This document shows, in pieces, positions 26,890-59,988 of a stretch of 64,000 nt of DNA (positions are counted from its first letter, which is position 1; the number at the start of each line of letters is the position of its first letter). Source of the DNA: Ginglymostoma cirratum (Eukaryota); the NCBI GenBank assembly GCA_024137785.1, contig JAHRHZ010000018.1, positions 52,211,260 to 52,275,259 of the forward strand. Reading direction: 5' to 3'. The translations under genes were made by a program, and so were the position numbers. The notes beneath the pieces were generated by a model. The model did no database searches. It was not told the origin of the DNA and saw nothing but the letters and a program-made list of their open reading frames with translations.

Positions 26890-27140
26890 CCTGTTTTTCC
26901 TCTCACCTCAAGCCACACCTCCATCTCCTATCTACTAACATCATCCCGCCCCCTTGACCTGTCCGTCCTCCCTGGACTGACCTATCTCCTCCCTACCCCC
27001 CTACCTACACTCACCTTTCCTGGCTCCATCCCCGCCTCTTCGACTTGTCTGCCTCCTCTCCACCTATCCTCTCCTCTATCCATCCTCTATCCGCCTCCCC
27101 CTCTCTCCCTATTTATTTCAGAACCCTCTTCCCCTCCCCC

Positions 27141-27176
27141 ATTTCTGATGAAGGGTTTAGGCCCGAAACGTCAAGT
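27141..27176 (+). ncRNA. Minimal type I hammerhead ribozyme motif in the PLE terminal repeat
   Basis: attt-CTGATGA-a-GGGTTTAGGCCC-GAAA-CG-TC-aagt; stem I ATTT/AAGT; palindromic ACGT in place of stem III. Confidence 0.72.
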
Positions 27177-27805
27177 TTTCCTGCTCCTATGATGCTGCTT
27201 GACCTGCTGTGTTCATCCAGCCCCATGCTTGTTATCTCGGATTCTCCAGCATCTGCAGTACCTTTTATCTTTAATTAGCAACATGATGGTGTATAAATGT
27301 TAATTACCAAAAGGATCAACTACTATCAAAAAGCAAGCCTTAAATTATAGCAAACCAAGCAAAATATGAAAGACAGGAGGGGTAAATTCCTGTTCTAGAA
27401 CAAAGAGGACAGAAGTGAAATTCTTGAGAATGGTGAACTGTAGACCATCTAAGAAAAATATTAAAAATGAATGGCCAGAGGCACAATGCACTATGCCTGA
27501 GAATTCCTATATGGTGAATGCTAAAATTTGGTACTGCCTAATACCTTTCAGTGCTTAAACTACCTATGAGTTTGAAACAATAGGGATGGTGAGGAAGTAT
27601 TTGCTGGGTTGAACAATAATGCAATTCACTATTAATATACTAGAAAAAGTAGCAGTAAAACCTTTTTAACTGATGGACAAATAAACTTTGATAGACAATA
27701 TATTTCAGCTGGTATTACTTGGTAAGCAATTAAGGGCGCAAAAGGAAGAGCAAACAACATATTTCACTAGAATGTAGAATTTTATTCAATTCACAGTTCC
27801 ATTTC

Positions 27806-36901: not shown

Positions 36902-37990
36902 TGTTAAGCAATGTTTATGACAGGGAAAGATGATTGTCCATGGGTGTTGTGTAACAATATCAGGACCCTGGAGCAACCTTGCAATGATCCCACTGAGTAT
37001 AAATGCCACAGAGTGGGTAGGGTTAGAACTTTCTGAAAGAAGGCTTCCACAGTCTCGTATGGAACTCAGTACAAGATCAGACTCTAACATGGGGATGAAT
37101 GCATGAAGAAGATAGATTATGTAATGTGACAATAAGTCAACGTTTGTTATGTCTAATGATTCCCAAGTATAGCAGCATTTAGTATTAACACATAACAAAT
37201 ATTGTTGTGTTGTCAAGCAACCATGGACTCAAAATTGGACATTCTAATTTGATGCACAGCCAGAGAAATCAGGCCTGACCAAAAACTGACCAAACGATAT
37301 CAAACTGCAGCCAGCAGCTATCGGCTACAGAGAATGAAGGAATTCAAGATCAAAGAGGTTACAAAAGTTGAAGGAAAACCAATTACAATCAGCCTGAGGG
37401 TTATGTATTGGAGAAGTGTCAATCAGATGTTATGGCACCTTTACTATCTGTGTATGTACACTTTACATCTCTCCGCATAGCAACACCATTGGATGATTTG
37501 AACCCAGTTCATGACCCCATTGGCCACAAAACATTTCGAAGGGCCTGTGTAAGGTGGGGGGATTGGGGAAATCAATGAAGACTCAGTGAACACTTGCAGG
37601 GAAGACTCACAGCAAGACTCCAGGCGGAAAACCATTCAGCGATTCGAGAAGACCCAGGAGAAAATTTGCCCTGACCTGTGAGACCTATCTTCATGGAGGA
37701 GAGCCAGTCCTTTTTCAAGAGGAAGGATATTTCAACAGCCCAGCTCAAACATGTGGATTGTTGCGAGTTATATCTTTTCTCAGATGGACAGAGTTAGGTA
37801 CAGACTAAATATTATAGGAATTTGGGAAATACCGAGTTGGTGTTTTTAATGTGGAATGTTTTTGTTAATAAAACTAAGTTGAACCACAAACCAAATTTTG
37901 TGTTCCTTTGTTCTGCCTCACTAACAAGAGCGCTCAGGTAAGGTATTTTTAACACAGAAACTGTTCAAAGGTCCCAATGCACAGACAACA
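36902..37990 (+). mobile_element. Probable 5' LTR of the retrovirus-like element (left boundary uncertain)
   Basis: AATAAA at 37867-37872, ends ...ACAACA at 37990, followed by a PBS-like TGGCATCGTGGATTGG at 37992 and then gag-like sequence. Confidence 0.55.
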
Positions 37991-38099
37991 TTGGCATCGT
38001 GGATTGGCCTTCAATTAGAAGTATTTGTCCAACTTCCAGAGTCAAAACCCACCAACCTTGAACTCTCGGACATCCAGCCTGCGTGTAATTAAGAGGGCA

Positions 38100-39732
38100 G
38101 CTGCCCCACATGACAACCAGGATTCAAATGGGTTAAAGAGGTTGAAGGTTTCCGACCAGTGATTGGGCCATAAGCCAAACATTCGTAATGTGAGGAGTAC
38201 AAACAGATGAAGTTAGTACAGACCCGGGGAACAATGGTAAAGGAAATCTAGCATGGTTAGTACATTGTAGGGGACTCACAGAAAACAAAGGCAAGGAAGC
38301 TGATTATAAGTGAGAAGCCAGATATTAAGGTCAGGGACATACAAGATAAGAGAAAGAGAAAAGGGGCAGAGACCCAGAGTCACAGAGAAGTGAAAAAACA
38401 ACTAATATAGGATCAAAGACCCATGAGATAGAGAGAGAGAGATCAATAAATTAAAGGGAAGCATGAGGAGAAATGACACAGTACACAGAGTACAAGCCCT
38501 CAGAGTGTCCACCATTGCAGTGAGTAAATATCTGATCCAGGACCCACAGGACAGAAATGCTGGGAGGTGACGTGGAAGCCTGAAAGGAAGTTCATTTTAA
38601 ACCTTAGCAAGATTGTAAGGATAGTCAGCTGCTTGGAGCAGCTGCAAGGGAGAGAATGGGAGAAGTTGGAGCTAAGTAAGGAGCTGGAGAAAGGGAAGCA
38701 GGAATTGCAGAAAATAAGAGTCAAAGCAGCAGAGCAGGACCAGAGGAACCAGGCAAACGTGGTACACTTGGGACAGTTTCAGACTCAGTACAATAGACCG
38801 TACCAGGAAGAGCAGCATACGGTCAGTGATCGGGGCACAGCCTGAAAACTGTTGGTGATCTGAACAAGAAATGCAAAAACCTACAGGTTGTGCTCAGAGT
38901 CCTACACCAGAAACGCAAAGAAAACCGAGTCTGGACTGTGGACCATTCAAAATACCAGTGTGAGATTGAAAAATTAAAGTCCCAACTTTCCGTGCAAAAT
39001 GGAAGTGATGTGAGAATTTGGGACATTAGAATCGGATGGGGACAGTGATTATGGGATAGACTATGGGAGGAGATGGAAGAACAAGCCCATAGATACACTG
39101 AGAGTGGTGCATTTTGGGGACTCCCACCTCCCCTGCCAGAGGGCGCTGCATGATCCATTCTGCCTTTCCCAGTCTTCAGAATGTCGGAGGAGGGGAAATC
39201 CAGGCCATGAAAATGACAATTCTAGCTGCTGCCGGACACGATAGGGGAGACAATGTGGAGGCGATTAAATTAGTGTAGGCAGCGAAAGGGAAAGCGCCCA
39301 GCTGCATTTGCCAGGCACCTATGGACACAGTTTTCAGAAGTCTTCAATAATGTAGATCAGACTGCACTGATGCTGCAAAACACAGTAAATTGGACCCAAA
39401 TGCTATCCTCAATTAACACTGACGCAGTGAGGAAAGCTTCTGTAAACATTGATCCCACAGACAGCACCCACACAGAACTGTGGGTGATAAGGAGGATGGC
39501 CTGGCTTGGGAGAAAAGGACATTCTTGAATCAGAGCGCCCCAGATCAGGCAAGGGGGAAATGCACTCAGTAAAAGCCCCAAACCCCAGTCCCATGTGGAC
39601 AAATCAGGGGGTCAATCAAAACAAGGGGAGTTATTAACAAAGACATCCACCTATATATGCCAATCCGGTAGTTAGAGATGGGGATCAGCAGCAGGGAAAT
39701 CTGAGGCAGCCTCCATCGCTGCAAGGCAAATG
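38100..39732 (+). pseudogene. Decayed gag of a retrovirus-like element, cut at the inversion breakpoint
   Basis: Coiled-coil remnant EWEKLELSKELEKGKQELQKIRVKAAEQ; ends CAA GGC AAA TG (QGK-C), which continues in frame at 55595 on the minus strand into a CCHC knuckle. Confidence 0.7.
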
Positions 39733-39845
39733 GCCAAAACTTGTTGGTCTTTCAGTGCAAGGAGTTGACCTTGACCGAATGTTGCAGATTGGCACATTCC
39801 AAAGTCCAGAACTACAGGCTGAGGCATGCACTAAAGATCGGGACT
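39733..39845 (+). mobile_element. Tx1-clade LINE ORF2 C-terminal fragment, displaced by the inversion
   Basis: LLVFQCKELTLTECCRLAHSKVQNYRLRHALKIG, the expected continuation of ...INSVKDALWS ending at 55596(-). Confidence 0.8.
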
Positions 39846-39854
39846 TTTTCACAC

Positions 39855-40112
39855 AGCAGTTGAGAGTTAATCATATTAACATGGGGCTGGAGCAACATGC
39901 AGGTTAGACTGGGTAAGGATTTCAGACTTTAATTTCTAAATCATTTCTCGTGAGCCAGACAAGATTTTACAAAATCAATTATAGATTTATGGCACCAAAA
40001 CCACAACCAGCTTTCAATTCCATATTTTTATCAATTGAGTTTAAATGCTACAAGCTATTGTGCATTAATCTGAATTTCTGGAATACTAGACTAGTGACAT
40101 TAGCACTATGCT
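39855..40112 (-). mobile_element. Degenerate SINE-like element related to the 5' segment at 20480-20700
   Basis: Reverse strand reads catagtgctaatgtcactagtctagtattccaga...atttaaactcaattga...ggaattgaaagctgg...tctggctcac...ccttacccagtct...tgattaactct. Confidence 0.55.
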
Positions 40113-40574
40113 GCAATCTCCTATGACTGTTGGCCTGATGAAGACTATTTTTACCAAATGAACTAATTGCAGAACAAAGCAAGTCACAGCAACAAAGTTC
40201 TCAATCGAAATACATCCATCTTTAATGGGTTTGACAAATGCAATGTAGTGATGCTGGAACTCTTTCCTCTCTCTTTAATTGAATTTGAAAGCTATAGATC
40301 TTGTTCACTGAAAATTGTGTATCTCAACTTGATTGCTGATGGAAACAGTAATTAAAATTTAAGTGACTGTTGGTTTCTTACACTTTGTCATTAAAATACC
40401 TGAGCTTACTTATTAGAACTGTGGCCAAAACTCCCTCTTCAAGACAGAATTATGTAATGCCTATTATCTTTGTTTAATATTTCACATTTTCTTTCACAAT
40501 GTAGTACATTCCAACACAATGGTCTGAGTTTTTTTTAGTAACGTTGGATAGAAACTAATGCTGATTCCCATTGA

Positions 40575-40790
40575 GGTTTGTCTGGCTTAGTTGGCTGCTT
40601 GGCTAGAGCGTGATGCAGAACGATAGGGGTTCAACTGCCATTCCACCGATGGTCATTCATGGAGGTCCCTCTTCTTGCCTTGATCCATGCTTATGGAATG
40701 ATGCCCCTCAAGCTATAGAAAAGCAATAGTCTCTCACTAATAGAGGGAGATGCCTATGGTCCTTTGTTGACTATGGCTAATTACTATACC
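40575..40790 (+). mobile_element. Degenerate tRNA-derived SINE
   Basis: A-box-like tggcttagttgg and B-box-like ggttcaactgcc; related reversed heads near 25885-25960 and 57020-57070. Confidence 0.5.
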
Positions 40791-41279
40791 GACTGCTGCT
40801 CCTGGGAGCAGGAAATGAGGTTGGCAGGGGGAACTTAATTGGATGGAGGTGGAAAGTCTGCTTCCTGACATTGGGATTGAAGTTGTGGATTGGAGGCAGG
40901 TCAGGGCTCCCAGCGGCAAGCAGCAGGAACCTACTTATCATGCAAACTCATTAAAACACATATTCACTGGATTAAATGGTACCTTTGTGATTAAGTTGGC
41001 AACAAATGAGAAACACATGCTTTCAGATTCCTAATTGGTTGCAGCAAGTGAGCTAGCTTTCCTGGTGGATTTGAACTGACAGGAGCAGCTGTACTCATAA
41101 GGGGTGCTGTTTTAGATTAGGGCCGAAAATGTTGAGCTCATGCACTCTCTGTCTGCAGAGGTTAGGCCAGGGCTGACCATAGAAGGGAAGAGCATAGATT
41201 GTCCAGAGAGGTCAGGGTATGGCAGTCTTTTGAAATGTGGGCTGAGAGAAGGATTAAATGTCATAAGGAAGCACACTGT

Positions 41280-42835
41280 GAAACCAGAACTGAAAATGCT
41301 GGAAATACTCAGCAGGTTAGGCAGCATCTGTGAAGCGGGAAACAAGATTGTCATGTCAGGTCAATGAACTAGAAGACAGGAGAGATCAATTGACAAAAAA
41401 GTTAGTCTTCCAGGGCCAAAGAGAATATAACTGGGTCAAGACAATAAAGAATCAAAAGACATGCTTCTTGTGTCATTATGTGAAAGCAAAATATGAAGAA
41501 AGAAACAAAATATCCAAAGATAAAGGAAAGAAAATGGACAGGCAGAATTTACAGCCTGAAATTGTGGAACTTAACATTGAGTCTGGAAGGCTGCAGCACA
41601 GTGGTTCCCAAAGGTTTTGCTCTCCTGGCCCCTATTTTGGTACTTCCAAAGGTTGCGAGACTCTAGGTCTGTGAGAGCTGGTGGTGGGATTGAGAGACCT
41701 GTAAAAGTGACAGGGAAGCAAGCTGTTGAATCCACAAGGTTTTTAAGGAAAAGGCACCCACCTTCCCAAAAGATGTTTTAGGACAGCATTCATGCCTATA
41801 CGATTGAGTAGTTAGGGCAGGCTGCTATTATAAAGCTGTGAGATTTAAAGGATCCATGCAGCAGGTAGCATGTGGTCAGAGATCCACAGTAGCCATTGCT
41901 TGGAGGTCATGACCCCAAACTGTGGCTGTCTACTTCACTGGGTTTCACGACCCAAGGTTTGGAACCCATCCACTGCTGTAAGATCGCTAAGCAAAAAATG
42001 AAATTCCGTTCCTCAAGCTAACAGTGAGCTTCACAGGAACAGTGCAGTGGGCCAAGGACAGAGATAACAATGTGAGAGCAGAGTGGAGAGTTAAAATGAC
42101 AGGGGTGCTGGAGGGTCCGGGTTATGCTTGCAGACTGAATTAAGGTGTTCTGCAAAAATGTCATCCAATTTGCTTTTGGAGTCCCTGGTATAGAGGGGAT
42201 CACATTGTGAGCAGCAAAAATGGTATGATAACTTGAACAAAATACATGTAAATCACTACTTCAATTGGAAGTAGTGTTTGGGCATTGGGAAAGAAAGACT
42301 GAGCAAGTAGAAGGGCATGTGTTGCACCTTCTGTGATTGCATTGAAAGGTGCTTTGGGAAGGCAGGGCTGCTGCTGTTAGTGACTTGACCTGGATATCAT
42401 TGAAGGAAAAGTCCTTTGGAAGGCTGAAAGGGGAGCAAAGTGAAGATGTGTTTGGTGACAACAATGCATTGGAGGTGATGGAACTAGTGGAAAATGATTT
42501 GTTGAACAGAATATCAAGGCTAAAGGAGCAGAAAGTACATACATGGTTTCTGGGAGGGAGGGGAAAGTGTGAGAGTAGAAGTAGAAATGTGAAGGACATT
42601 GTCGAAGGTCCTGATGTGACCGTGGTAGCGGAAGGAGAGAAAGTGTCGTTGGTTGAGGAGAAAAACAGATCTGTCAGAAATGCTGTTTGGAAGGTTATAT
42701 CATTGGAACAGATGCATAGAAAGTGGAGGCACTGACTGAATGGAATAGGGTCTTTACAGGGTATAGGGTGTGAGGAAGTGCAGATAATCTGGCTGTGGTA
42801 GTCAGTGGGCTTCTAATAAATATTGGTTGATAGCT
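41280..42835 (-). mobile_element. Older degenerate Penelope-like element
   Basis: Minus-strand STFQCNHRRCNTCP linker, GIY-YIG C-terminal remnant (HFNSPLCSH...VLGPLHCS) and a terminal repeat at ~41280-41370. Confidence 0.75.
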
Positions 42836-42949
42836 AAGATGATTGAATGTAATCTTAGTGAGTACGCATTCCTATGACAGCTAATGACACTTCCACAGAT
42901 GCACTGCCCTGTAACTTTCTCAGCATAGATTGGTATTTCCACACATTGC

Positions 42950-45900
42950 ATCCTCACGTTCTGTTCAGCACTGATGCCTTAAACACAAACTCCTACCCAC
43001 CATACGTCTCTATGTGCCCATAGATCTCACTCCATTCCTTCACAAGAGCCAATGATACCATGCCACTTCCCCTTGCTGAGTGCAGTAGGTCCTTGACCCT
43101 TGTCTGAGATCTTTCTGAGTATTGCTTGAGGACCCCATGCTGGCTTGTCTGGTTGGAGGGGCTTGTACCACTAGCACTGGTAAACAGGACCATCAGCTGT
43201 TCCTGCAGGCAGCATCCTGCACAGAGACATTTGTTCATTTTGTATGGGGTGACAACAGGCGATGGGGATCAAGAGGAGGGATGGGGGGAAGCTATTGGGA
43301 TCCAGGATGGGGAGGGGGTGACAGTACGTAGAGTTTGAAAACCTCGGCTCAGACAGCCAGGTGGATACTGCTAGCTTGCAGGGATTAGGGGCTGTTTAAG
43401 TAAGGCATCCTGACCTTTGACCCATGTGGTGACATCAGGGTTGGTGATTCCCATTGTCACATGATATACCAGGCCCCATGACACTGAATGTCCAGTTGGC
43501 TGGCCAATGTATGATATTACCTCCCAGTGGAAGTCCTGCTCATCTGTAGCCCTGCCATTGGGGCACTTGCTGCTGCAACAGAAGTTCCCCTATTATCTGT
43601 AATTTAAAGGAGATTTAGTTGAACTGCTGCCTTTGGAGATGTGGAGAACCATCTTAAGCTGATTGTTCATTCTGCTGTTTGTAACTTGGAAATGTAATTG
43701 CATTCTGACAAACCACTCATTGTGGTTTCTGTTTGTGGGCAGGGTGAGTAATCAGCTCGCACAGAAAGGCCAGAAGTGTTGGTCTTTGAACAGGTCATTT
43801 TTGACCATTGTGGTAGATTCGCTGCCAGAAATCACAAACTGTGGTCATGACTCTAAATGACTGCCCATGTACTGCTCTTTATGCTATTACTGGATCTGTG
43901 AAACTCATCCTGCAGTGCAATTAAAACAGGTTGCAGGGCAATGAGAGTCACAACATACTTCATTTAAGTCCTTGGGGGATATATACCACAAGAGTTAGAG
44001 TTTGAGTCTTTATAATGCCATAGAACAGAGACCAATATAGAACTGGCTGCAAACTTCACTCAAGTATTGAGCAGAATCTTACGTGGGCCTTAAGGATGTG
44101 GGCTACGGCTGGAATCAGGGAGAATCATGTGAGAAGTCCAACAAGGTCTTTTGTGATGTTAGGAGTGACCAGTAGCCTTTCCAATGGAGCCCCAAATGTT
44201 GACACAAGCTTCACAGTAGAGAGTGGCAAGAGGCTTATTGATGGGGATCAAGCACTGAGCTTATGGAATGGACCAGGCTGCATCTCAGGGCCCCTTGCTT
44301 GCTCTCTGAATGTACACTCACTTAGCATCTATTTGCATTCTCACAGCATCCCCTACCTTGCCTTGCTTTGCCATGCTTCGCCATGCCATTTAGTGCACTG
44401 ATCCCTCAGGCAGAGCTTAAAATCCCACTGTCTTTATTCTTCTGTCTTGACTTAACACAGTGTACATACAAAGACATACAGCATGTCTTGCTGGGCGTTA
44501 GTCCTCAGTCAAGAGGATGGACAGCTTGTTATACAGCACAGTGCTATGTCAATCTCATGTGCCAGCTATGTAGTGGCACATTGCATATGCTGTAAGTGAA
44601 TATCCATGCCTCAAGGGGAGCTGTCCTCACTGAAGGCAGAAAGGCCTCTGCCATCAGGGGCTCCTGGTACAGGATGTCAAGGAATTGGCTTTGGTACGAT
44701 GTCCAGTCTAGACACATGCGGTCATGGCGTCTGTACCTCTACAGTTCAGGAAGTGGGTCAGAATGTCCTGGGGGACCATTTACTGAAAGTCATGAGGGAG
44801 GGAACTTATCAAGGCCTGGTGTGTGTGGGAGGCAGACTGATGAACTTAATCTTGGATAGTGGGGTCTGAAGGCCGGGGTGCAAAGGTTTGTTGGGGTAAG
44901 GGGTTCCAGCTCAATATGTAAGGGAAGATGATACAACATGGGTAGGGAAAGGGTCATGTAGAAGGTTTGGGGAGTCAGTCATCACCAGTGATCAGAAACC
45001 TGACTTCCTGGGTGTTGTTTGGGGTGGGGGAATAGTGCATAACCACACATGGCATTATATGCCAGCTCAGATGCCTGGTGCTGGGAAGGAGCAGATGGAG
45101 AATCTGATAGAGGTGGGATGAAGTTGGTGGGGCTTGGGGAGGTGTGATGTCTCTGGAGTTGAAAGGTAGAGCTACCTGGAAGTGGAGTATTGATACTTGG
45201 AAGTGGAATATTGATATTTGGGGCTCATCTAGATGCAGAGATTGGAAGTAAGGAGCAGCATCAGTTGTCTTCAATTATTGCATAAATCGCAAGCGTGCAA
45301 TAGAAATGAAAACAGTTGCAACCACAACCGGAATGGGGCAGCTACGTGCATCGCTCTGATTGAGGAAGCTGCAAGTTCCAGCAATGTGAGGCCTGTCGAG
45401 GGGAAACAGCATTAGATACAGACTCATACCCTGTGGCATAGAATCCCTGGTAACACTTATGCATCCCTGGCACCTCCCTGCCCCAAGGATTTCAGACCAT
45501 TTCTTACTAGATTAAGACTGACCCAACTAGTATCTGTGATGCAACAGCAATCGCTATGCCCCGGTAAGAGAGCCAGGTTGCCTGTGAGGCAGCCATTGCC
45601 AACACATAGGTCACTTTACACCTTGGACAATGTAGGAGTAAGGATGGGTGGCTTCTTTGTCAGCTGCAGTTGTGCCTGTGTAGAGACTTGAAGAAACAGA
45701 TTATATTGAACAGTGCACATAGATATACAAATGTGAGCATTTATGATCAATGAAATGTCACTCGTGCCATCCATGTGCTCTCAAAATGTATTCTTCCTTT
45801 CCCTCCCACTGTGTCTTAGTGCAGTTCCAGCTTCTGCAGGTGGGCTGGAGGAACCCTGCCCCAAGCTGGAGCCTGTTGGCCTGGAGCCGTGGTTGGATGA

Positions 45901-47900
45901 CCCCAAGGGAGTGTTTCTAGAGGACTCAGGTACCCTGAATTCCTCCTGCTTAGAGGCAGGTACATCCTCCTTGGTCACAGAATTGTGGATGGCAGGCTGA
46001 GTGGAGGTGGAAGGCCCAGCCTCCTCTGGAGTGTCCTGAGAGGGGATTTCTAGAGGGGGCCAGCATGTGGTTGTCCCTCCAGCTGAGGGCGTACTGACAC
46101 CGCCCTGTTTCCTCATGAGGAAGGGACATCTGCACAGAGTCTCTGAACTTCCCGTGACCTTGCCTTTACTGCAGAGCATCAGTAGCTAGGATAATGGAGA
46201 CAGGTCCATTTGCACATCCAGCAGGCTCTGAGAGTGCTAGGCCTGGATCTCCATGACAGCCACCTGTCCAAAGAGGCAGCCAGACGCTCACAACCCTGAG
46301 GCAACAGAATCCACATCTCATCTCTGCAGGCCTGTGTCTGCTTGTGCATGTTGATCGTGTCCCGACATTATGGGGTCCTCTCCTGACTGGTCTCTGGCTG
46401 TCCTCTGAGGTGCTGGTGACGTGGGCCATTTCTTACTCGATGAGCTGCATGAGATGTGACAGTGACATGCTCACCAGCAGGTACTCCCGACTCCAATCTA
46501 GTTACAGCACGCACCAAGGCAGCAATATCTGAGCATAGGATGCAGCCTTTCCCCTGCTTCCTCTGAGGCCTCCGTACTCAGCTCTGGGGTAGTGCCAGAG
46601 GGAATATGCTGGCTCACCATGCTCTTGCCCTGCAAGTCCATGGACAGGCTGTGCAAGACATTAAAAAAAAGGTGTTGCAGCTAAGGTTAGAAGTTGTATC
46701 AAGTGAGAATGGAATTGATAGTGGCTTCATGTGAGATCCGCACTGTGAAGAATATGGTTTCTTAATTGATTGGCAGAATATGAATATCTTTGCATCTCTG
46801 TGAGCCCTGTCCTGGTCCTCTCTGGCCAGTGCCTGGATCTTTACCTCGTAGAGGGTGAAGAGATAGATGGTGGGCCTGTCCTGGCACCTACTGTGGGCTG
46901 TTTTCTCCTAGGCTAAAAGAAAAGGGGGGATTGAGTGAAATGAAAGTGGGTGACAAAACTCAAGTCAGTGCTGGTGCAGGTAGGTCAGGAGGGATGGGGT
47001 GGGAAGGGGTTGAGGGTGGTGGGGTAATGTGAGCCGTCCCAAGTGAGTCAATAGGCAGCACAGAGGCATGTAGGGTTGATGGGGGTGGTTTTGGGGTGGG
47101 TGACAGTGACTGAGGGAAGATACTGCAGTCAATGGTGAGAGTGGTGGAACATGAGCCTTTCTGAGACGTGGGTGCAGTAGCGGAAGTAGGGTGAGTGTGA
47201 AGTAGCAGAGAGATGATGGTCGCTTTCACCTTGGCAGACAGGGGAAGGTCGCTGACCTTCTTCATGCATTGTTGGGTGTTTTGCTGGACGGTGAAAATGG
47301 CATACTCATGGGTAGTGCCCCCAGACTAGGCTGGTAGGGTCTGAGAATGTGGTATACTTTGTTGGTCCTGGGGGTAGAGGATGGGCCACCATGGCCAACC
47401 CCTCCCAGGTCTGTGCTGGCAAATTGTGACGCTGATTTCCCCTTACAGCCAGGACCTCATGGAGTGTGTGCAACCAGTGCTCATCTGGGTGCCAGGCAGC
47501 CTCTTAAAGATGGCACCACTGCGAGGAATGCTGGAACATCCAGGCAGTGGCAAACAGTATTCCCTTTAATTTGCCTACTGTCTGCACTGGGTACCAAGGC
47601 CCATGTGTGGCAGTGACTTCCAGAACTGGAAACTATTGCCATGGTTGGTGCAGCGGTGCTGATCACTGTTCATGGAACATCAGAGGAGCTTCATGCACAC
47701 TCAGCAACATAACAAGAGGGAACGTTGTTCTCGCGTACTTTAGGCTGTGCCAAGCAGGAGAATGGGTCTATTGTAAGTTGAGGATGTTGCAGTGTTGATA
47801 TGGTTTGGTATTTAATGCAAGTTTGGGATGATAGTGTGAGAAAACTCATTAAGCTTTATAGACACAAGCTCTCCATGAAACACAAATTGACACTTAGCCA
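42950..47900 (-). mobile_element. PIF/Harbinger-like DNA transposon remnants (Myb/SANT-like partner ORF)
   Basis: Minus-strand TQQCMKKVSDLPLSAK followed by a GT donor (~47230-47280), and a second copy SQTRVKDLLHSAR (~43070-43110); both resemble the Myb/SANT-like QCxK(K/R)xNDL signature. GC-richer sequence. No clear transposase or TIR identified. Confidence 0.45.
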
Positions 47901-48726
47901 AAATATCATAAGATTCAGCCTTTTATTTTATATTTGTGAAGTTAGCCTTGATTATGTTCTTAAAAAGTTACTTTAGCGGCACTATTGACGACTATAACAT
48001 CACTATTTGTTTATGTGTTTGTAATGTATTTTTACCTGACTACGTTTGAGAGGCTAATGCATCTTCAGCCCCTTCAAATAATCTGGCCTATGTTGCTGCA
48101 ATAGATTCTGATGTGTCTGTCACTATTTGTATTCTTACGCGGCTACCTCTGCAGATTGAGGAAGACTCCCTTTATTTTCCTTTGCCTGAAGGCATACATC
48201 TCCTGTGGTCTCAACTACCATTTCTATGTGCTATTTTCAGTTCAAGTTCAGTTAATGAAAATGACTTTATAACAGTCTTTCTGTCCTCAAAACCTAATAT
48301 CCCATCCTTGCATCCAAGGCCCCAAAGGTTCAGTCCCACCAATATAATCTTCACCTTAATTCCAGACATTATTCCCTCTCTCTGATCTGTATTCAGTTCA
48401 TGGCATTTCTCTTTGACTACACGTCTCAGGTGCCACGTCCTATCAGGTATTTCTATCAACTACCAATAAGAAAGATTGACAGTTTCTCCTCTTTTCCTCC
48501 TAACTATTGGTTTGACCTATAAGATTGGAAACATTTCTTCCTGGTTTCATGTGAACTAGTACTCTGACTGTAATAAGCGTTTTATCATATATCTGCATGG
48601 CTCCATTCCAGGGTATGCCCTGTCATTTGGCTCCAGTTTGTTTAACTTACTGCTATGAAGCAAAAACAATAGTTGTTGAAAACTTAAATGTCTGCTAACA
48701 TTTGTGGGAAGATCAGATATGTTTGA

Positions 48727-49383
48727 ATAAAAACCAAAAGAACTGCGGACGCTGGAAATCAGAAACAAAAACAGAAATTGCTGGAAAAGCTGAGCAGGTC
48801 TGGCAGCATCTGTGGAGAGAAACCAGAGTTCACATTTTGAGTCCAGTGATCCTTCATCAGAACTGACAGTAGCTAGACACTTCAGCACATCACAGTTTCC
48901 TGACCAACATCTCTGTCTCAGGCTTGCTGTAGGGCTCCAGTGAAGCTCAGAGTAAGCTGGAAGAACAGCACTGTTTGGGAACCCTACAGCCTTCTAGATG
49001 CGATATCGAGTTCAACAATTTTGGGGCTTGAGGCACCTTCTCTCGTGTCCTTGCCCCAACCCCCACACACCAGGCCTTGTCATCAATGGTCTGTTATTAC
49101 ACACAACCTATTGTTAGCCACTAATTGTCCCTATTCATTCTCCCATGCCAATCGTTATCCACTCCATTATGTGTCCAACTATTCTTCTCGCTCTTTGCGT
49201 TCTATCTTTACCTATCATTTACTTATTATCCCCTCCTCCTACGCTAGTTTCTGCTTAAAAAGACATTTTCCTAGCTTCCATCAGTTCTGAGGAAGGGTCA
49301 CTGAAACGCTAACTTTGGTTTCTCTCCACAGATGCTACCAGACCTGCTGAGCTTTTCCAGCAATTTCTGTTTTTGTTTCAGAT
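48727..49383. mobile_element. PLE insertion with inverted terminal repeats (family B) around a GIY-YIG 3' fragment
   Basis: 48727-48865 is the reverse complement of the repeat at 49283-49383; internal KLEEQH...GTLQP-like remnant. Confidence 0.8.
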
Positions 49384-49439
49384 AAATTTGAGGTTCTCCT
49401 ACATACCCTTCTTCAAAAAAATACCTTTGGTCAGTCCAC

Positions 49440-50050
49440 AAGCATGACCCTGCGTTTTCAATGGCCTGTCATTTCATTCTCCTCTCTGCTCTCAGGCTGA
49501 TACCTTTGTTACAGGCCTGCTGCACTGCTCCAGTGAAGGTCAATCTGAACTTTAGGAAAAGCATCTCATCTTTCAGTTAGGGAGTTTTCAATCTTCTGGA
49601 GTCAATCGAGTTTTCTCATTTTAGATTGCAAACTCTGTTCCCATCCCAACCCTCTATTTTATTTTCGTTTCTTTGCGTTCTTTTTGGTTTCTTCTTTTAT
49701 TTTTATTTCCAATAATAGAATACCCACACTTGGCACACCTTTTGAGTCTTTTTTTTCCTTTTTAGCCTTGGGAGACTCACACTTCTGTCATTCAATCTCT
49801 TCTATCATGGATCACCCTTTAGTCCTTGTCCCAACCACCATTTGCTCAAAACTTATTATATCTTTAATTTTACCTATTTCTGGTTGAAATGTATCAACAT
49901 GAAATATTAATTTGTTTCTCTTGCCATAGAATCGTGCTGAGGATTTCCATGATTTTCTTTGTGCTTTCATTTAAGGGTAAAATATCAAATTGTTTGTTTT
50001 CTCCACTTGTTTACTTGTGTTTCAGATTTCCAGCATCTGCAATATTTTGC
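49440..50050 (+). mobile_element. Highly decayed PLE 3' fragment
   Basis: gcctgtcatttca...ggcctgctgcactgctccagtgaag...catctcatctttcagttagg (GIY-YIG end) and terminal tttcagatttccagcatctgca. Confidence 0.55.
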
Positions 50051-50489
50051 TTAAGTTTTGAAAGACAATTTTTTTGGTAATAATTGTGCAGTTATTTTCG
50101 CTGCACCTGAGTGTTGGTGAGAAAAGATCACTGTTGGACCAACACCAGTTTGATTCATTTATTCAGATCTACAAGAAGCCAAGGGAAATAGAAATTGTCC
50201 ATAATCCTTCAATTTTTTTTTAAGATACTGCAGCCAGAATTAAGATTTGAAGTTTTGTATTTTTTGTTCCATTTAAATGTACAAAATCCTTCTAAATTCT
50301 TCATGGTTCTCTATGGTTAGCTGACCAACACAAACATTTAACATGTTTGCAGCTTTTTACCAATGTTGATCTAAACCAAATTTTAGGAGAATGTCTGAAG
50401 GACAACTCTCTGACTCTCTGGTGTGATTCAGTTGACAACAATGAATATTTAACTTCTGAAGGGGGAAAGAAAACAGACAGTACTTTGAT

Positions 50490-51354
50490 ATAACAAGCAT
50501 GGGGCTGGATGAACACAGCAGGTCAAGCAGCATCATAGGAGCAGGAAAACTTGACGTTTCGGGCCTAAACCCTTCATCAACACAAGCCCTCCTCCTGGAC
50601 ACCACCCCAAGGCCTCCTACCCTCCCTCGACCTCTTCATCTCCAACTGCCGTCGAGACATCAATCGCCTCAACCTCTCTACCCCTCTCAAACACTCCAAC
50701 CTCTCCCCCGCAGAACGTGCAGCCCTCCACTCCCTCCGCTCCAATCCCAACCTCACCATAAAACCTGCGGACAAGGGAGGGCAGTCGTAGTATGGCACAC
50801 TGACCTCTACATTGCTGAGGCCAGGCGCCAACTCTCTGACACCTCCTCCTACCGCCCCCTGGATCATGACCCCACCCCCGAGCACCAAACCATCATCTCC
50901 CAAACCATCCACAACCTCATCACCTCAGGTGACCTCCCACCCACCGCCTCCAACCTCATCGTTCCCCAACCCCGCACCGCCCGCTTCTATCTCCTCCCCA
51001 AAATCCACAAACCTGAATGCCCTGGTCGACCCATTGTCTCCGCCTGCTCCTGCCCCACCGAACTCATCTCCACCTACCTACACTCCATTTTCACCCCCTT
51101 GGTCCAGGAACTCCCTACCTATGTCCGTGACACCACCCACGCCCTCCACCTCCTCCAGAACTTCCAATTCCCCTGTCCCCAGCACCTCATTTTTACTATG
51201 GACGTCCAGTCCCTAAAAAAGCATTTCTGATGAAGGGTTTAGGCCCGAAACGTCAAGTTTTCCTGCTCCTATGATGCTGCTTGACCTGCTGTGTTCATCC
51301 AGCCCCATGCTTGTTATCTCGGATTCTCCAGCATCTGCAGTACCTTTTATCTCG
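50490..51354 (+). mobile_element. Young PLE insertion: inverted terminal repeat + N-terminal RT fragment + direct terminal repeat, 14-bp TSD
   Basis: RT motifs IKPADKG, FYLLPKIHK, GRPIVS and FTMDVQSL (50581-51214); the two arms are identical over 90 nt; AGTACTTTGATATA at 50479-50492 and 51355-51368. Confidence 0.92.
51223..51258 (+). ncRNA. Minimal type I hammerhead ribozyme motif
   Basis: Identical to 27141-27176. Confidence 0.72.
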
Positions 51355-51929
51355 AGTACTTTGATATATGTGTATGCACAGTTCTGCTGCTTACTAGCCC
51401 TTATCTTTTCAATTCTACCTCTGTGGGTACAATTATCACATCCTCATAATATCTCCACGTACTTCAGAAGCAATTAAATGTCTTTTAAATGCAGTTACCA
51501 TTATGGGTGTAAACCAACAGCCAATTCCTCACACTGAGTCCATAAAAAATGGCAAATGAGATAAATAATCATCTGGTTTCTCCAACTGTCGCTTTAAGCC
51601 TGCTCACCTTCATTATTTCTCTTTTATCATGTAATTTAAACCCACTCTGAGTTTGTTATTATGACAGACTGGTCAAGGTGAAGGTAAGGTCAAGAACTTT
51701 CTTTGGGCTTAGACTTCAAAGCCACTGTTGTCTGTGCTTTGAACATTTCGAACAGTTTATGTATTAAAACACTTTACCCAAATGCAGGTGTCAATGAGGC
51801 AGACGACTCAGTTCAACTTGATTCTTCATTAAAAATACTATGTCAGCATTTCCCAAATTCCCACAATATTTACTCTCGATCTAGCTCTATTTGTCTGAGA
51901 AAAGTCATGACCAGTAACAATCCACCTGT

Positions 51930-54900
51930 TTGAGCTGGATGATTGGAATCTCCTTCCTCTCCAGTGTAGGGCTGGCTCTCTTCCAAAAAGGTGGGTCTTG
52001 CAGGTCAGACCAGATCTTTGTCTGGGTCTTCTGCCTTAATTCGTGCTGCAGGTTTTCCCTGCGAGTTGTCACTAAGTCTTTGCTGAGTCTTCATTGATCC
52101 TTCCTCACAACTTCCAGAACGTTCTGTAGCTTTTGGCCAATGGGGTCATATGCTGGGTTCAAATCATCCAATGGAGTCGCACTAATACCTTTCACTGTAG
52201 CCATTCCCAGAGGCAGAAGTGCGCATCCTCAGGTACTCAAGTTGCCAGAATGTCTGATTGACAATACAATACACTCAGCTGGTTATAATTGGTTCCCCTT
52301 GAACCTTTGTAACCTCTTTGACCTTGGTTCCACTGTTCTCTGTAACTAATAACTCATGCCTGCTGTTTAATTTAGTTTGACCTCAGAACTTTTCTGAGGA
52401 AGGGTCACCGGACCTGAAATGTTAACTCTGTTTTCTCCTCCACAGATGCTGCCAGACCGGCTGAGCTTTTCCAGCAACTTTGTTTTTGTTGCTTCACCAC
52501 AGTCTCTCCTGTGGATTCCTGTACATTTTCTAAAAGACGTTTCACAGTTTTCTTGTGGCAGAGGGTTTCAACCTCGGGCTCTGTCAAGTCCAGTCCTCTC
52601 ACGAGGTGTCTGCTTGTTAGAACGTGAGGGGGTGTTCAATCCATTTGAACTGAAGGGGAGTTCCTTATGACCATGAGGACAAAGGGTAAAACTATGTTCC
52701 TACTGCTTTGCTGGAAGATCTTTTGCAGCGTCCCTTTGAGGGTTTCCTTCATCCTCTCTACAATCCCACTGGATTGAGGATGGAAGGTGACATGGAACCT
52801 TTGGCTGGCACTAAATATATCCATCATTTCGTGCATTACCTAGGCTGTGAAATGGGTTCCCTGGTCTGAATCTGTACTACAGAGAAGCCTCCATCTAGTG
52901 AAAACATGCTGAATTAAGATATTTACTGCAACTTTAGTGGTGTCTGTTTGAATGAGGATCATCTCTATCCGTTTGCTAAAAATGTCCATGATGGCCTGGA
53001 TATATTTATGTCCCTTTTACAGGATGATAGGGGCCAACATTGTCTATTTCAAGAATAATCCACAGTCCTGCTACTGACCTGATTTGCCTTAACTCTCCTT
53101 TATTGGCAAACTTATTTAGATTAACATGGGCACAGTTAATACAATTCTTGATGTAATGTTTTATGTTGTTTCCCATTCCTGGCCATCAACACAATCCTGC
53201 AATTTTGCCAGTTGTGGCTTCTGTCGCTCGATGATTCTGGATTCACAGTATTGATAAATCACTTGATTTCAGTTATGGACTGCTATCATTTACCGCCCAT
53301 CTTTGAGAACAAATCTGAACTGAGTACTTAACCTGTTCTCCCATGTGCTTTATGAGATGGGTATCATTCCCTCCTGTACTTGCTTTAACGCAGCATCGCT
53401 GCTCTCAGCCTGTCCCAGATCTTTGACCTTGGTTTGGTCCGCAGCGATGGTAACTATTTGTTCTGGAACGGGGGGCTGCCATGTTTTTCCTTTGTGGGCA
53501 TCCTGCTGAGCCAATTCATCTGTCCATATGTCCCCAGCTGGGGAGGCACTAGCTTTAATGATGCCATATTTGTGGCATTGGGCATTTTGGAGAATAAATT
53601 TGAGCAGGGGTGTTTACGGTAATGGTTTCCTGTCTGCTGAGATGAATCCTCTACCTTCCCACAGTGACAGGAAGTGATTTCAACTGTTGCAGACATACGT
53701 GCTGTCTGAGTATCTGTCTGCTGGTGGGGGGATATTTTTCAGGGTGGCTGACCATGTAGATTCCAGCTGCTAGTGCTTATTTTGTTGGGAAGCTTCAGCA
53801 CTAACAGTATCAGAGGTTCCCCTCTGTGGTCCTCCAAATATACATTACATCCTGTCTTTCAGTCTCCATCCTCTACCGAAGAGCATCTGTCTGTTAATAT
53901 TCTTCTGGGGGTCCTCTCATTTGTTCCCAGGTTCCCTTGGGTCTTCCTCCCAGTTTATTTTGACACAGATAGTCCCTTGGGGACTTTTGTTGCCACTACC
54001 TGACACTCATGGGATTTTCCTCCGTAGCTCATATTCTTGGCGAGCAAGGTGGGCACTTTGGTACATTTGTCTATAATGTCGCGACCCTGTAACAATAGGT
54101 TCTGACAGTATCCCATTAAACCCAGAAAGGGACACAATGAGCGCACATTCCTGGGGGAGGGGCAAACGGATTATGGCTTTGATGCACTATTTCATGTTTC
54201 CCCCGGGCTGTTACAGTTTCTAAGTATGAGAGCTGGATCCTCATGATCTGTGCATTCTTGGGGTTAACTTTCAGTCCTGAGGGTGAATAGTTCCTTTTAC
54301 ACTGTTAACTAAATGTTTGGTCCTTGTACCTGTCCACATACCATACCAAGCAGTCTGGTCAGGAAACCTTCTCTAACCCTTTAGGCAGTGTCTGATAAAA
54401 TATTGATGGAGAATTGTGGATACCCTGCGACAAGCAGGTCCATGTGTATTGCTGACTCTGAAATGTGAAGATGAATTTATATTGTCAGTATCGGTGAAGG
54501 AGGGCCGGACTAAAATCCTTAACTAGTGTCTAGTATGGCGAAATATTTTGCTCATGAGGCCTGCCTCATCATGGTTTCAGGGCTAGTCACTACTGTTGGT
54601 GCAGTGATTGTGGTGTTTTATTGAGTTCCCTGTAATCAATGGTGGGCTGTCAAGAGCCGTCTGGTTTCTTAACTGGCCATACTAATGAGTTATTAGTCGA
54701 CATCGACGCTACAGGGTCTAGGACTCCTTGTTTTAACAAGCTGCTAATGACCTTGGCCACGTTCTCCTCTGCCTGCTTGGGGAATGTGTATTGTTTTTGT
54801 GGCTTTGGGTCCTGTCCGTCTATCATTACCTCACCATCTATAGGACCGCAGTTGTGTTTGTTACTGATGAACACTTGTGCTCTGTGAGAGTTTCCTGTGC

Positions 54901-55595
54901 TGCTGAGCCCTTTGTCATTCCAGAGCATCTAATCCACAACTTCCCCATGGAACACATTCCCTGTGTGTCTGTGCCTGGTGTAATCTCCACTGGGGCCTCA
55001 TCAAGCTCGGGCATTTGCAGAATATAGCAATCGCCCAGGTCAAAAGACAAATTACACTTCCTCATAAGATCCCAAGCCTAAAATGTAGTCAGGACCCATA
55101 TGGAGATTAACCAGCACAGCCGGGTGATGGCAGACTCTGTCTCCCAGTTTGAATTCTGTAGGTTCTGTCTGCACTCCGTCCTAAAGATATTCAGTAAATC
55201 TGTTCAGAAGAATTTTCTTAACGGGTTGTTGTCAAAATCTTGGGACGTGTTAAGTGTCATTCTAGATCATCCTGCATCCCTCAAAAACTCAACAGGGCAG
55301 CCTTCTACCTCTCCATCTACCAGGGGCTGTCCCACACTCTCCCATCTGGCACCACCCACGCATTGAGGAGAGAGGAGTGGCTCCGAGACGCTTTAGGGAG
55401 TGTATCCAACCAGGGATACAAGACGGTGGGATCTCCTCCACTAAATTTGGCTGCCGTTTCTCCCCCACCAAATTATCTGTTATTTGTCCCTCTGGTCCTT
55501 CCAGCAGCATGGACAGGGGTCTAAAGCCTTGCTCCTGCAGTGGCTCTAACCACTCGCAGTCCCCAACAAAACGGCCTGTGTGCCCACAAGTGTAA
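51930..55595 (-). pseudogene. Decayed retrovirus-like gag end / pro / RT / RNase H / integrase
   Basis: YTCGHTGRFVGDC knuckle; protease VEGCPVEFLRDAG; RT PQKQYTFPKQAEENVAKVISSLLKQGVL...VWPVKKPDGS*QPTIDYRELNK, KYFAILDTS*GF*S, QYTWTCLSQGIHNSP and YVD; RNase H YSDSTYVCN; integrase DSDQGTHFTA and HPQSSGIVER. Left boundary approximate. Confidence 0.88.
52381..52492 (+). mobile_element. PLE terminal repeat (family B) with a decayed hammerhead motif, inserted in the provirus
   Basis: ttCTGAGGAaGGGTCaccgGACCTGAAAtgttaactc, preceded by a short inverted remnant cctcagaact. Confidence 0.75.
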
Positions 55596-57000
55596 AGACC
55601 AAAGAGCATCTTTCACTGAGTTGATGGCCCTCCAGGTGCAGTCAATGTTTGTCTTGGTGTGCGTCCTGGGGAACAGACCGTAGAGCACTGAGCCCTACAA
55701 CACAGAACTGCTCTGGATAAACCTCAACAAAAATCATTGCATCACTGTCCAGGCTTCCTTTGCAAAAGCACATTACAGCAGGACATGTGTGACATTCTTT
55801 ATCCTGCCTCCATAGCCACTTCAACGGCAGCGTGTGGTGACAGAAAGAGCCCACTCATACATGAAGGATCTCACAGGTAATGTCCTTCTGACCACCAGCC
55901 AAATGATGTCTTGGTGCTTGTTGGAAAGTCCTCTTTTGTGGAGGTGGCACAGTGGCTCAGTGCTGCCTCACAGCACCAGGGACCCAGGTTCAATTCCACC
56001 CTTGGGCAACTGTCTGTGTGGAGTTCACACATTCTCCCTGTGTCTGTGTGAGTTTCCTCCAGGTGCTCTGGTTTCCTCCCACAGTCCAAAGATGTGCAGG
56101 CTAGGTGGATTGGTTATGTGAAATTGCCTATAGTGTTCAGGGATGTGTAGATTAGGTGGGTTATAGGGGGATGGGTGTGGGTGGGATGTTCTGAGGGTCA
56201 GTGTGGACTAGTTGGGCCAAAGTGCCTGTTTCCACCCTGGAGGGATTCTTTGAATCCTAGTGATGAGGCATTATGCCAAATGGCTTTAATAGTCTGTTCA
56301 AGGAACCATGCAACAGGATCCACCCTCTCCTTTTCCCTCAGGGTGTTGAGGATGCTATGTGCTGACCATTTCCCGATGGACTTGTGGTCAAAGATGTTTT
56401 TTTAAATAAATTTCACCACAAAGGACAGGTGATGTGGAATGGTTCAACTATTTGGAGTGTTCCGTAACTTTGAATCCAGTCTCTGCCTCACCTTGGTGAA
56501 ATGCTTCTTCCAAGTTTTTGCGTACGGCGAGGCTCCTCCAACCCATATTCCCAGTACCTTCAGGTAATCTGTCCTGAGGGTGAAACGGATAAAGGATTGA
56601 TCAGCCCAGATCCTAAAAGAACATGACCTCACCCTTGCCTCAAAGTACCTTGGCTCCCGAGGCCAGTTTGAACTGGCCGCGTATAGAAATGATTCTGCAC
56701 ACTAAAGACTGATCCGAGCAGAAAACAGCGAAGCCATCCACGTACTGGGAGGTTTTGATCTGCAGGCCTCTGCTACCTTGTACAGTTACCCCTCTCAGGC
56801 TCACATCCTTCCTGATGGACTCAGCAAAAGGCTCTATAGAGCACACAAAGAAGGCAGGATAGAATGGGCAGCCCTACCTGGCTCCAAATCTGATCAGGAA
56901 ACTTTTTGATTCCCACCCGTTGATTGAGGGTGCACATATTGGGCTGATTCCCTCCCCAGATTCCATTTTGGAGAACATGTCCCACATTAAACTTTCTCCA
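55596..57000 (-). mobile_element. Tx1-clade (L1 group) LINE ORF2 fragment, interrupted by an HE1 SINE
   Basis: CSIEPFAESIRKDVSLRGVTVQGSRGLQIKTSQYVDG, YLKVLGIW, LPVRSFMY...THVLL*CAFAKEAW and INSVKDALWS. Confidence 0.82.
55943..56256 (+). mobile_element. HE1-type V-SINE
   Basis: tRNA-like head, V-domain and tail as at 23661. Confidence 0.88.
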
Positions 57001-59090: not shown

Positions 59091-59988
59091 CTGAGATAAC
59101 AAGGTGTAAAGCTGGATGACAGCAGGCCAAGCAGCAGCAGAGGAGCAGGACGGCTGACGTTTCGGGCCTAGACCCTTCTTCAGAAATGGAGGAGGAGAAG
59201 GGGGTTCTGAAATAAATAGGGAGAGAGGGGGAGGCGGATAGAAGATGGATAGAGGAGGAGATAGGTGGAGAGGAGACAGACAGGTCAAAGAGGCGGGGAT
59301 GGAGCCAGTAAAGGTGAGTGTAGGTGGGGAGGAGATAGGTCAGTCCAGGGAGGACGGACAGGTCAAGGGGGCGGGATGAGGTTAGTAGGTAGGAGATGAG
59401 GTTGGGGCTAGAGGTGGGAGGAGGGAATAGGTGGGAGGAAGGACAGGTTAGGGAGGCGGGGACGAGCTGGGCTGGTTTTGGGATGTGGTAGGGGGAGGGG
59501 AGATTTTGAAGCTTGTGAAGTCCACATTGATACCATTGGGCTGCAGGGTTCCCAAGCGGAATATGAGTTGCTGTTCCCGCAACCTTCGGGCGGCATCGTT
59601 GTGGCACTGCAGGAGGCCCAGGCATGTCGTCTGAGGAATGGGAGGGGGAGTTGAAATGGTTCGCGACTGGAAGGTGCAGTTGTTTAGTGCGAACCGAGCA
59701 TAGGTGTTCTGCAAAGCGGTCTCCAAGCCTCCACTTGGTTTTCCCGATGTAGAGGAGGCCACAACGGGAACAGCGGATGCAGTTTCCCACATTAGCAGAT
59801 GTGCAGGTGAACATCTGCTTGATGCGAAAAGTCTTCTTGGGGCCTGGCATAGGAGTGAGGGGGGAGGTGTAGGGGCAGGTGTAACGTTTCCTGCGGTTGC
59901 AGGGACAAGTGCCAAGTGTGGTGGGGCTGGAGGGGAGTGTGGAGTGGACAAGGCACTTGTCCCTGCAACCGCAGGAAATGTTATACCT
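59091..59988 (-). mobile_element. 5'-truncated Penelope-like element (GIY-YIG + terminal repeat) with a short fold-back at its 5' end
   Basis: CIRCSRCGLLYIGKTKWRLGDRFAEH...PVANHFN; hammerhead motif at 59153-59187; 59952-59988 is an inverted copy of 59877-59913. Confidence 0.9.
59153..59187 (-). ncRNA. Minimal hammerhead ribozyme motif
   Basis: attt-CTGAAGA-a-GGGTCTAGGCCC-GAAA-CG-TC-agc. Confidence 0.62.

Follow-up and report, generated by a model that had tools for sequence, protein, structure and literature searches.

Positions 39733-55595 of the stretch of Ginglymostoma cirratum DNA analysed here (64,000 nucleotides, hereafter the window) are inverted relative to the ancestral order. The inverted segment comprises 15,863 bp of mostly decayed repeats. 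At its left breakpoint (BP1, 39732|39733), the 5' piece of a gag gene abuts the 3' piece of a LINE. At its right breakpoint (BP2, 55595|55596), the 5' part of the LINE abuts the zinc-knuckle/pol piece of the element to which the gag belongs. Four lines of evidence bear on the inversion: the split LINE, the split gag, a pair of LTRs in opposed orientations, and a contig from a related genome. A first-pass annotation of the sequence had proposed a single reciprocal inversion with these breakpoints. The junction letters match those given there, the length is the same when recomputed, and protein-level tests of the LINE and gag, together with the inverted LTRs and the relative's contig, back the proposal. 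The inverted LTR pair, and the departure of the relative's contig from the window at 55594, are new to the present analysis. No Pfam family was detected in 39733-52400 (0/6 frames, with queries whose length lowers sensitivity), and no Rfam family across the window.

The split LINE is a non-LTR retrotransposon that we take to be Tx1-like. The 5' part of its ORF2 occupies 55596..56987 on the minus strand and contains RT and zf-RVT regions (Pfam matches to PF13966, E 8.8e-6, and weakly to RVT_1), with an internal deletion and a high-copy insertion at 55943-56253. The 3' piece, of about 36 codons, occupies 39733..39842 on the plus strand and is itself truncated before the end of the ORF. This ORF2 resembles 27 shark and amphibian ORF2 homologues in which a non-LTR RT is followed by zf-RVT. 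When these homologues were compared with the window by using tblastn, their N-terminal parts matched the minus strand down to 55596, and the C-terminal parts of 11 of the 27 matched the plus strand (starting at 39729-39741 and ending at 39831-39842), and the residue numbers of the two parts adjoin. The LINE halves thus rejoin across the two breakpoints, as had been claimed. The other 16 homologues (one skate protein with an unrelated C-end and 15 amphibian proteins) gave no plus-strand match at E<=0.01. In contigs assembled from read sets, too, 39737 is connected to 55596 on the other strand, with no common letters, in all four runs (9, 7, 6 and 9 contigs); most of these contigs probably stem from further copies of this family. 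The four runs belong to a list of 17, nine of which contain query words of the window, none of them half or more.

The LINE comparison also locates a small irregularity. In homologue P0009, the match of residue 392 runs to 55596 and that of residue 394 begins at 39735, leaving 2 nt for residue 393; the one-base shortfall noticed on first reading is therefore seen with this homologue as well. The missing nucleotide is located within 39733-39736. Only one other frameshift is found in 386 aligned LINE codons, and the chance of a 1-nt loss so near BP1 is roughly 0.3-2%. Because such a loss is rare by chance, a repair scar would explain it better than a computational flip. As it lies off the terminal base, it may instead represent older decay. 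The inversion had been called blunt; the ends are indeed clean and reciprocal, but they are not exact, because 1 nt is gone within about 3 nt of BP1.

The gag 5' piece (38516..39732, plus strand) has coiled-coil and capsid-like parts and many stops and frameshifts, and it is broken at 39732. Residues 16-443 of a catshark gag homologue, P0035, map to plus-strand positions 38516-39504 (E 4.5e-17 to 2.4e-5); Pfam detected nothing in this piece (0/3 frames). The zinc knuckle of P0035 (residues 492-504; zf-CCHC, E 1.1e-7, Pfam) matches minus-strand positions 55594-55556. This match is not significant alone (E 6.4), and it has the highest ungapped score among 127,924 positions (42, with the next at 29), a placement made with one full-length gag homologue. 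The Cys-His knuckle at 55594-55556 is degenerate, and Pfam finds no zf-CCHC in the window's knuckle piece. The left gag frame that best fits the pre-knuckle linker of P0035 leaves 2 nt, complementing 1 nt on the other piece; this frame scores 37, and the other two 23 and 20, so the preference is weak. The claim that gag rejoins a knuckle leading into pro-pol is upheld: gag lies on the plus strand, the knuckle ranks first at minus-strand position 55594, and RT, a weak RNase H and integrase lie downstream. Neither zf-CCHC nor a protease is detected by Pfam. Searches for longer gag-pol forms by way of P0035 returned one irrelevant plant match among 1903 candidates, and searches by way of the RT piece returned two matches among 171 candidates, neither of them a gag-spanning protein. 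Another candidate gag homologue, P0037, was dropped as a low-complexity false match.

The gag belongs to a decayed retrovirus-like element whose 5' LTR is at 37208..37990 on the plus strand. This LTR has a 7-nt terminal inverted repeat, its start is less certain than its end, and it is followed by a primer-binding-like site, TGG, at 37992. The rest of the element (52550..55595) is on the minus strand and includes, after the knuckle, a protease-like motif near 55278 that was recognized by eye only, RT (about 54814-54344), a weak RNase H (about 53796-53497, E 0.05) and integrase (about 53236-52777). Pfam did not detect a protease, and found no relevant family in the knuckle/protease stretch. The 3' LTR, at 51726..52501 on the minus strand, carries a high-copy repeat inserted at 52392-52490 and is oriented opposite to the 5' LTR. 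Alignment of the pair scores 475 in inverted orientation and 24 in direct orientation, and the best of 100 shuffles scores 31.5. Over 620 ungapped columns, the LTRs show 76.3% identity (K2P 0.29). Their flanks, a candidate target-site duplication, agree at three of four bases, an agreement with a 5% probability by chance. A provirus architecture is thus present, with paired TG...CA LTRs, the primer-binding-like site and a gag-RT-RNase H-integrase order in which RNase H is weak. This copy is decayed, and the interval separating its integrase from the 3' LTR shows no env.

What was originally described as a transposon with gag is more exactly termed retrovirus-like. Among solved structures, those of foamy-virus RT come closest to its RT (E 1e-19, compared with 6e-13 for MLV), in a database, PDB, that lacks most retroelement lineages. 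The integrase comparison is a tie between PFV and Ty3. The RT-RNase H-integrase order and a match to PF17921 recall Ty3/Gypsy elements, whereas the RT scores higher with retroviral structures. Foamy-like endogenous retroviruses have been described from fishes and sharks (PMC5512871, PMC5210030, PMC10699275), and share with the window element an LTR-gag-pol-LTR layout and perhaps a foamy-near RT. However, the gag of the teleost members is described as having no Cys-His box (PMC5210030), whereas P0035 has a zinc knuckle and the window element a degenerate copy of one. The same layout occurs in lokiretroviruses, which are reported to have a tether plus RNase H and an env related to the paramyxovirus fusion protein (PMC7947760). 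The window's copy, which is decayed, shows no env, and a list of five host classes for lokiretroviruses in that report does not include sharks. More speculatively, the split LTR element may represent an undescribed shark lineage that combines a foamy-like RT with a zinc-knuckle gag.

In a relative about 4.4% diverged from the window, both split elements are already present. One of its contigs, of 1270 nt and at single-copy depth (9.5-14), aligns over its letters 1-839 to 54767-55594 with 5.3% difference, and does not continue into 55596 and beyond (three of four runs, two of three samples). The contig pieces listed have at least 447 letters, and the remaining 431 letters of this contig fall below that length; no gag-side joint from the relative was found among the pieces listed. 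The relative is thus without the window's BP2 adjacency and presumably holds the un-inverted order. Because its single-copy contig leaves the window at 55594, the inversion probably postdates the split between the two. The event would accordingly be bracketed: after insertion of the element (LTR divergence 0.29) and after the split at about 4.4% divergence.

The two ends have no repeat in common, as the first-pass annotation had stated. Microhomology is zero both inward and outward, and the sequences up to 300 nt from each end have no 12-mer in common. There is no duplication at either end, the residues of P0009 adjoining without overlap, and no tandem repeat is near BP1 or BP2 (0/13 rows). 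The longest inverted match near the ends is 9 nt (plus-strand 39744-39752 and minus-strand 55602-55594) and straddles BP2. It was rejected as homology because its E value is 1.1, it is one of three such 9-mers, and it mostly reflects an internal LINE repeat. No G4 motif or long Z-type run is near the ends; G4 motifs come no closer than 3.5 kb and 0.56 kb, and Z-type runs do not exceed 7 nt. The 5-mer TACAC/GTGTA is reported as enriched at structural-variant breakpoints of cartilaginous fish (PMC13320814). Its occurrence at 55590-55594 was not counted as evidence, because the window contains 100 copies.

We consider it probable that this is a real germ-line, paracentric "cut-and-paste" inversion, in which two breaks were end-joined after the split from the relative. 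The window's lineage, once separated from the relative, would have suffered two double-strand breaks 15.9 kb apart, each inside a dead mobile element (one retrovirus-like, the other a LINE), and end-joining would have rejoined the broken ends crosswise, losing about 1 nt at the most. The mobile elements would have been passive, recording the inversion rather than causing it. The initial preference for end-joining over ectopic recombination holds firmly for its second term, since ends without homology exclude ectopic recombination; end-joining itself is the best reading of the repair, judged from the footprint. Both flies and humans already provide examples of such inversions. "Cut-and-paste" NHEJ inversions (Wesley and Eanes 1994, cited in PMC7584159) likewise have clean breaks, no end duplication and no flanking inverted repeats. 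They differ in that the window's ancestral order is read from split elements and an LTR pair, not from a second allele, and in that the window inversion misses 1 nt near one end. Among 183 resolved human balanced inversions, 51 are without flanking inverted repeats, and 23 of these have indels >50 bp or are complex (10.1101/2021.12.20.472354). The window inversion, from a shark rather than a human genome, is likewise kilobase-scale with no breakpoint homology and would join the remaining 28. Staggered breaks, which leave inverted duplications, also produce balanced internal flips, as does non-allelic homologous recombination (NAHR), which needs inverted repeats at the ends (PMC7584159), but the window's ends have neither feature. 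Twin-priming inversions occur within one LINE insertion and are under about 2 kb (10.1101/2021.12.20.472354), and were set aside because the present inversion is 15.9 kb long and spans unrelated elements and unique DNA.

Other explanations were weighed against end-joining. An error of assembly or curation, in which two cuts were made in a contig and the piece between them was flipped without gaps, is unlikely. Cutting and flipping by software would also give a near-perfect reciprocal join, with the near-zero loss seen at both ends, and the sole relative examined is without the BP2 adjacency. However, neither end has an N (the only N run in the window is 1059-1254), no repeat longer than the 9-nt inverted match is available to mislead an assembler, and the improbable 1-nt loss beside BP1 argues mildly against such an error. 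Slightly less likely again is a real inversion that arose through template switching during replication or through microhomology-mediated repair. Such a process could account for the 1-nt irregularity at BP1 and for the 9-mer straddling BP2, but in-register microhomology is zero at both ends, that 9-mer is unconvincing for the reasons given above, and no duplication, templated insertion or deletion >1 nt was found.

Clean, reciprocal ends might also be expected if the breaks were not random but were (near-)blunt cuts by an enzyme such as a transposase, an integrase, topoisomerase II or a RAG-like protein. We regard this as improbable: the ends have no terminal repeat or duplication, no RAG heptamer is present within 200 nt, and both cuts fall within coding regions of the decayed elements rather than at their termini. 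It is very improbable that no inversion occurred and that chance juxtaposition, nested insertions or two unrelated rearrangements created the arrangement. The knuckle match is weak alone, but the two junctions are reciprocal save for at most 1 nt, the LTRs are inverted, and insertion alone cannot leave each of two elements with its halves on different strands. NAHR between inverted repeats is hardly credible here, even though it is the commonest human route (132 of 183 resolved balanced inversions; 10.1101/2021.12.20.472354). The ends are in unrelated elements that share no 12-mer, and the inverted LTRs, whose distances to the closest breakpoint are 1.7 kb and 3.1 kb, are a product of the flip. 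This route would require that a flanking repeat had later been deleted precisely at each end.

The inversion is upstream of BCL11A, whose first coding exon is at 11518..11572 on the minus strand (ATG at 11572) and whose ZnF0 exon, near 6334, encodes 27/27 residues identical to the BCL11A chain 9bv0_A. The distance, previously put at 28-44 kb, measures 28.2-44.0 kb. No gene is disrupted by the inversion, which is presumably neutral. Just inside BP1, a block at 39793..41310 is a possible constrained noncoding element: its divergence from the relative is 3.0%, compared with 4.6% (P ~0.009 after correction for eight stretches). We think it quite doubtful that the inversion is a lineage-specific or polymorphic cis-regulatory change, in which flipping this 1.5-kb block and shortening its distance to the start codon from about 43 to about 29 kb would have altered BCL11A expression in this shark lineage. 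If the moved block were a BCL11A enhancer, the inversion would matter more; as a neutral-looking and ordinary repair accident, its biologic weight is small. Its breakpoints are base-resolved, and one assembly suffices to tell the direction of the event, by way of the split elements and the LTR pair. The inversion is therefore usable as a phylogenetic marker among related sharks, or else as a precise test of the assembly.

The 15,863 bp segment at 39733-55595 is bounded by two junctions, 39732|39733 on the left and 55595|55596 on the right, whose letters and length, as read in the first-pass annotation, were borne out by the sequence and by recomputation. Two transposable elements are interrupted at these same points. 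One is a non-LTR retrotransposon (LINE), with the 5' part of its ORF2 on the minus strand from 55596 and a 3' piece on the plus strand from 39733; we take it to be Tx1-like, as did the first-pass annotation. The piece right of 55595|55596 has 27 homologous proteins among 474 candidates. When these were compared with the window by using tblastn, 11 (10 named shark proteins and one unnamed) matched the minus strand as far as 55596 (55593 in one case) and then the plus strand from 39729-39741 to 39831-39842, the residue numbering running on from one match to the next. The other 16, comprising one skate protein with an unrelated C-terminal end and 15 amphibian proteins, gave no plus-strand match at E ≤ 0.01.

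Each LINE piece was also aligned separately, in a frameshift-aware manner, to three of the 27 homologues. In the homologue P0009, residue 392 ends at 55596 and residue 394 begins at 39735. A single base is therefore absent from the stretch 39733-39736, which agrees with the earlier reading that the join is one base short. The remainder of this copy has one frameshift in 386 codons aligned to another homologue, P0013. Separately, about 120 codons are deleted inside the LINE (56465-56474), a high-copy insertion lies at 55943-56253, and the ORF is without its final dozen codons.

The other interrupted element is a retrovirus-like LTR element, decayed along its whole length, with 37208-39732 on the plus strand and the rest, 51726-55595, on the minus strand. 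An exhaustive HMMER search among 1.84 billion representatives with the piece left of 39732|39733 returned three matches, of which two are real, both catshark proteins. Residues 16-443 of the catshark gag homologue P0035 (543 aa, zf-CCHC at 490-504) align to plus-strand 38516-39504, and its knuckle residues 492-504 match minus-strand 55594-55556 with the top ungapped score among 127,924 positions (42, versus 29 for the next). Behind the knuckle on the minus strand lie reverse transcriptase (RT), a weak RNase H, and integrase; a protease, near 55278, was seen by eye only. These matches support the previously proposed join of gag through a knuckle into pol, with the gag body on the plus strand and the best knuckle match, RT and integrase on the minus strand. 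The knuckle match by itself is not significant (E 6.4), and Pfam did not call the knuckle in the window.

Because an element carries its two LTRs as direct repeats, a break in gag followed by inversion predicts LTRs in opposite orientation. Self-comparison revealed such a pair: plus-strand 37291-37995 matches minus-strand 52379-51721, with 76.3% of the 620 ungapped columns identical and a K2P distance of 0.29. The alignment scores 475 inverted and 24 direct, compared with at most 31.5 in 100 shuffles, and both LTRs finish with the identical 10 bases. The plus-strand LTR has a 7-nt terminal inverted repeat from 37208 and is followed by a TGG primer-binding-like site, and the minus-strand LTR lies directly behind integrase. 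The outer flanks of the pair agree at three of four bases, for which the chance probability is 5%. At 52392-52550, the integrase ends before the C-terminal part that the Mustelus fragment P0033 contains, and the 3' LTR follows almost at once, suggesting that an internal stretch was deleted earlier; a high-copy repeat lies 11 bp from the probable start of this LTR.

Among public sequencing runs, none contained half of the query words; nine of the 17 listed, all from organism A, a relative, had 0.13-0.18. Four of its runs, from three samples, were aligned to 37000-56990. Contigs of single-copy depth, which differ from the window by 4.4% overall (415 of 9486 in eight listed stretches), span the 5' LTR, gag and pol, as well as the 3' piece of the LINE together with adjacent sequence and a large share of the interior, and therefore both elements are older than the split from organism A. 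One 1270-nt contig of the same depth (5.3% difference) aligns over letters 1-839 to 54767-55594; the remaining 431 letters do not follow the window from 55596 onward. Organism A thus is without the window's right-hand adjacency, and its contig departs no more than 1 nt from where an inversion would predict. This contig is listed in three of four runs and two of three samples, and is absent among the eight pieces shown for run X9. We infer that the 431 letters are the gag piece; this part is shorter than the shortest piece among those listed in those runs (447 letters). Contigs joining 39737 to 55596 on opposite strands occur in all four runs (9, 7, 6 and 9 contigs), no letters fit both sides, and most of these contigs probably derive from other members of the LINE family. 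The two LTRs have diverged about 6.6 times as far as the two species, which places the flip late in the history of the LTR element.

The main rival explanation is that the segment was flipped during assembly, which we consider unlikely. A cut made in software would also leave clean reciprocal ends, the sole relative compared is without the window's right-hand adjacency, and all comparison reads come from that relative, organism A. However, the ends have neither gaps nor a repeat, and one nucleotide is lost within about 3 nt of the left breakpoint, a coincidence that background decay would produce with a chance of about 0.3-2% (at a rate taken from one other event). The missing nucleotide is not the terminal one, however, and its loss could be older.

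In-register microhomology is 0 on either side. Within 300 nt the two ends have no 12-mer in common, whether compared directly or inverted, and inverted matches reach 9 nt at most, consistent with the earlier statement that no repeat is shared there. Neither G4 motifs nor long Z-type runs were found near the breakpoints. In the scheme outlined in PMC7584159, nonallelic homologous recombination (NAHR) needs inverted repeats and staggered breaks yield inverted duplications, whereas clean "cut-and-paste" breaks have neither; the footprint here is the last of these. Its geometry is reciprocal, with no homology or duplication at the ends, which supports the original preference for end-joining over ectopic recombination. 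Quite probably, then, two breaks arose in the germ line and the broken ends would have been rejoined there by end-joining. The right breakpoint adjoins a TACAC/GTGTA 5-mer (55590-55594), which is named in PMC13320814 as enriched at structural-variant breakpoints of cartilaginous fish; since it is present 100 times in the window, it was given no weight.

In the human data summarized in 10.1101/2021.12.20.472354, 51 of 183 resolved balanced inversions are without inverted repeats, and 23 of those 51 have larger indels or complex structure. Inversions like the present one are thus a known minority class. Our search of literature on shark BCL11A or split-repeat inversions, in which subscription journals were thinly covered, found no report of this locus; the shark inversion upstream of BCL11A is a new instance of that known class.

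The gene left of the inversion is BCL11A (start codon at 11572, minus strand); a zinc finger matches BCL11A chain 9bv0_A at every one of 27 residues. Relative to the start codon, the inverted segment is 28.2-44.0 kb upstream, in line with the earlier estimate of about 28-44 kb. The inversion cuts no genes, and a Pfam search of 39733-52400 found no family. Just inside the left breakpoint, the block at 39793-41310 has 46 differences from organism A in 1518 positions, with 70 expected (3.0% versus 4.6%; P 0.001, or 0.009 for eight stretches), and is possibly a constrained noncoding element. If this candidate is an enhancer, the flip would have brought it about 14 kb nearer BCL11A. Both breakpoints are free of N; the sole N run in the window (196 N, 1059-1254) falls within the BCL11A gene region and well away from the inverted segment. 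The first BCL11A exon (11518-11572, minus strand) encodes MSRRKQGNPQHLSKREFS. The eighth residue is K in human BCL11A and N in BCL11B, and the shark residue may therefore be the ancestral state.

The closest homologues of both the LTR element and the LINE are shark proteins. Among solved structures, the RT of the LTR element is nearest that of foamy virus, and its gag has both an N-terminal coiled coil and a zinc knuckle. A Cys-His box is present in the gag homologue but is lacking in teleost foamy-like endogenous retroviruses (ERVs; PMC5210030). Foamy-like ERVs of sharks are already known (PMC5512871, PMC10699275), and sharks are not in the host listing for lokiretroviruses in section 5 of PMC7947760. 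P0033, a Mustelus gene model named lysophosphatidylcholine symporter, begins with fragments of pol from this element's family and of another retroelement, and is probably a mis-annotation. Within the inverted segment, a young-looking element at 50487-51352, possibly Penelope-like, has 93-nt inverted ends that are 98.9% identical. It shares a 131-nt stretch, 100% identical, with 27140-27270, and related copies lie at 26379-27238 and 59093-59953.
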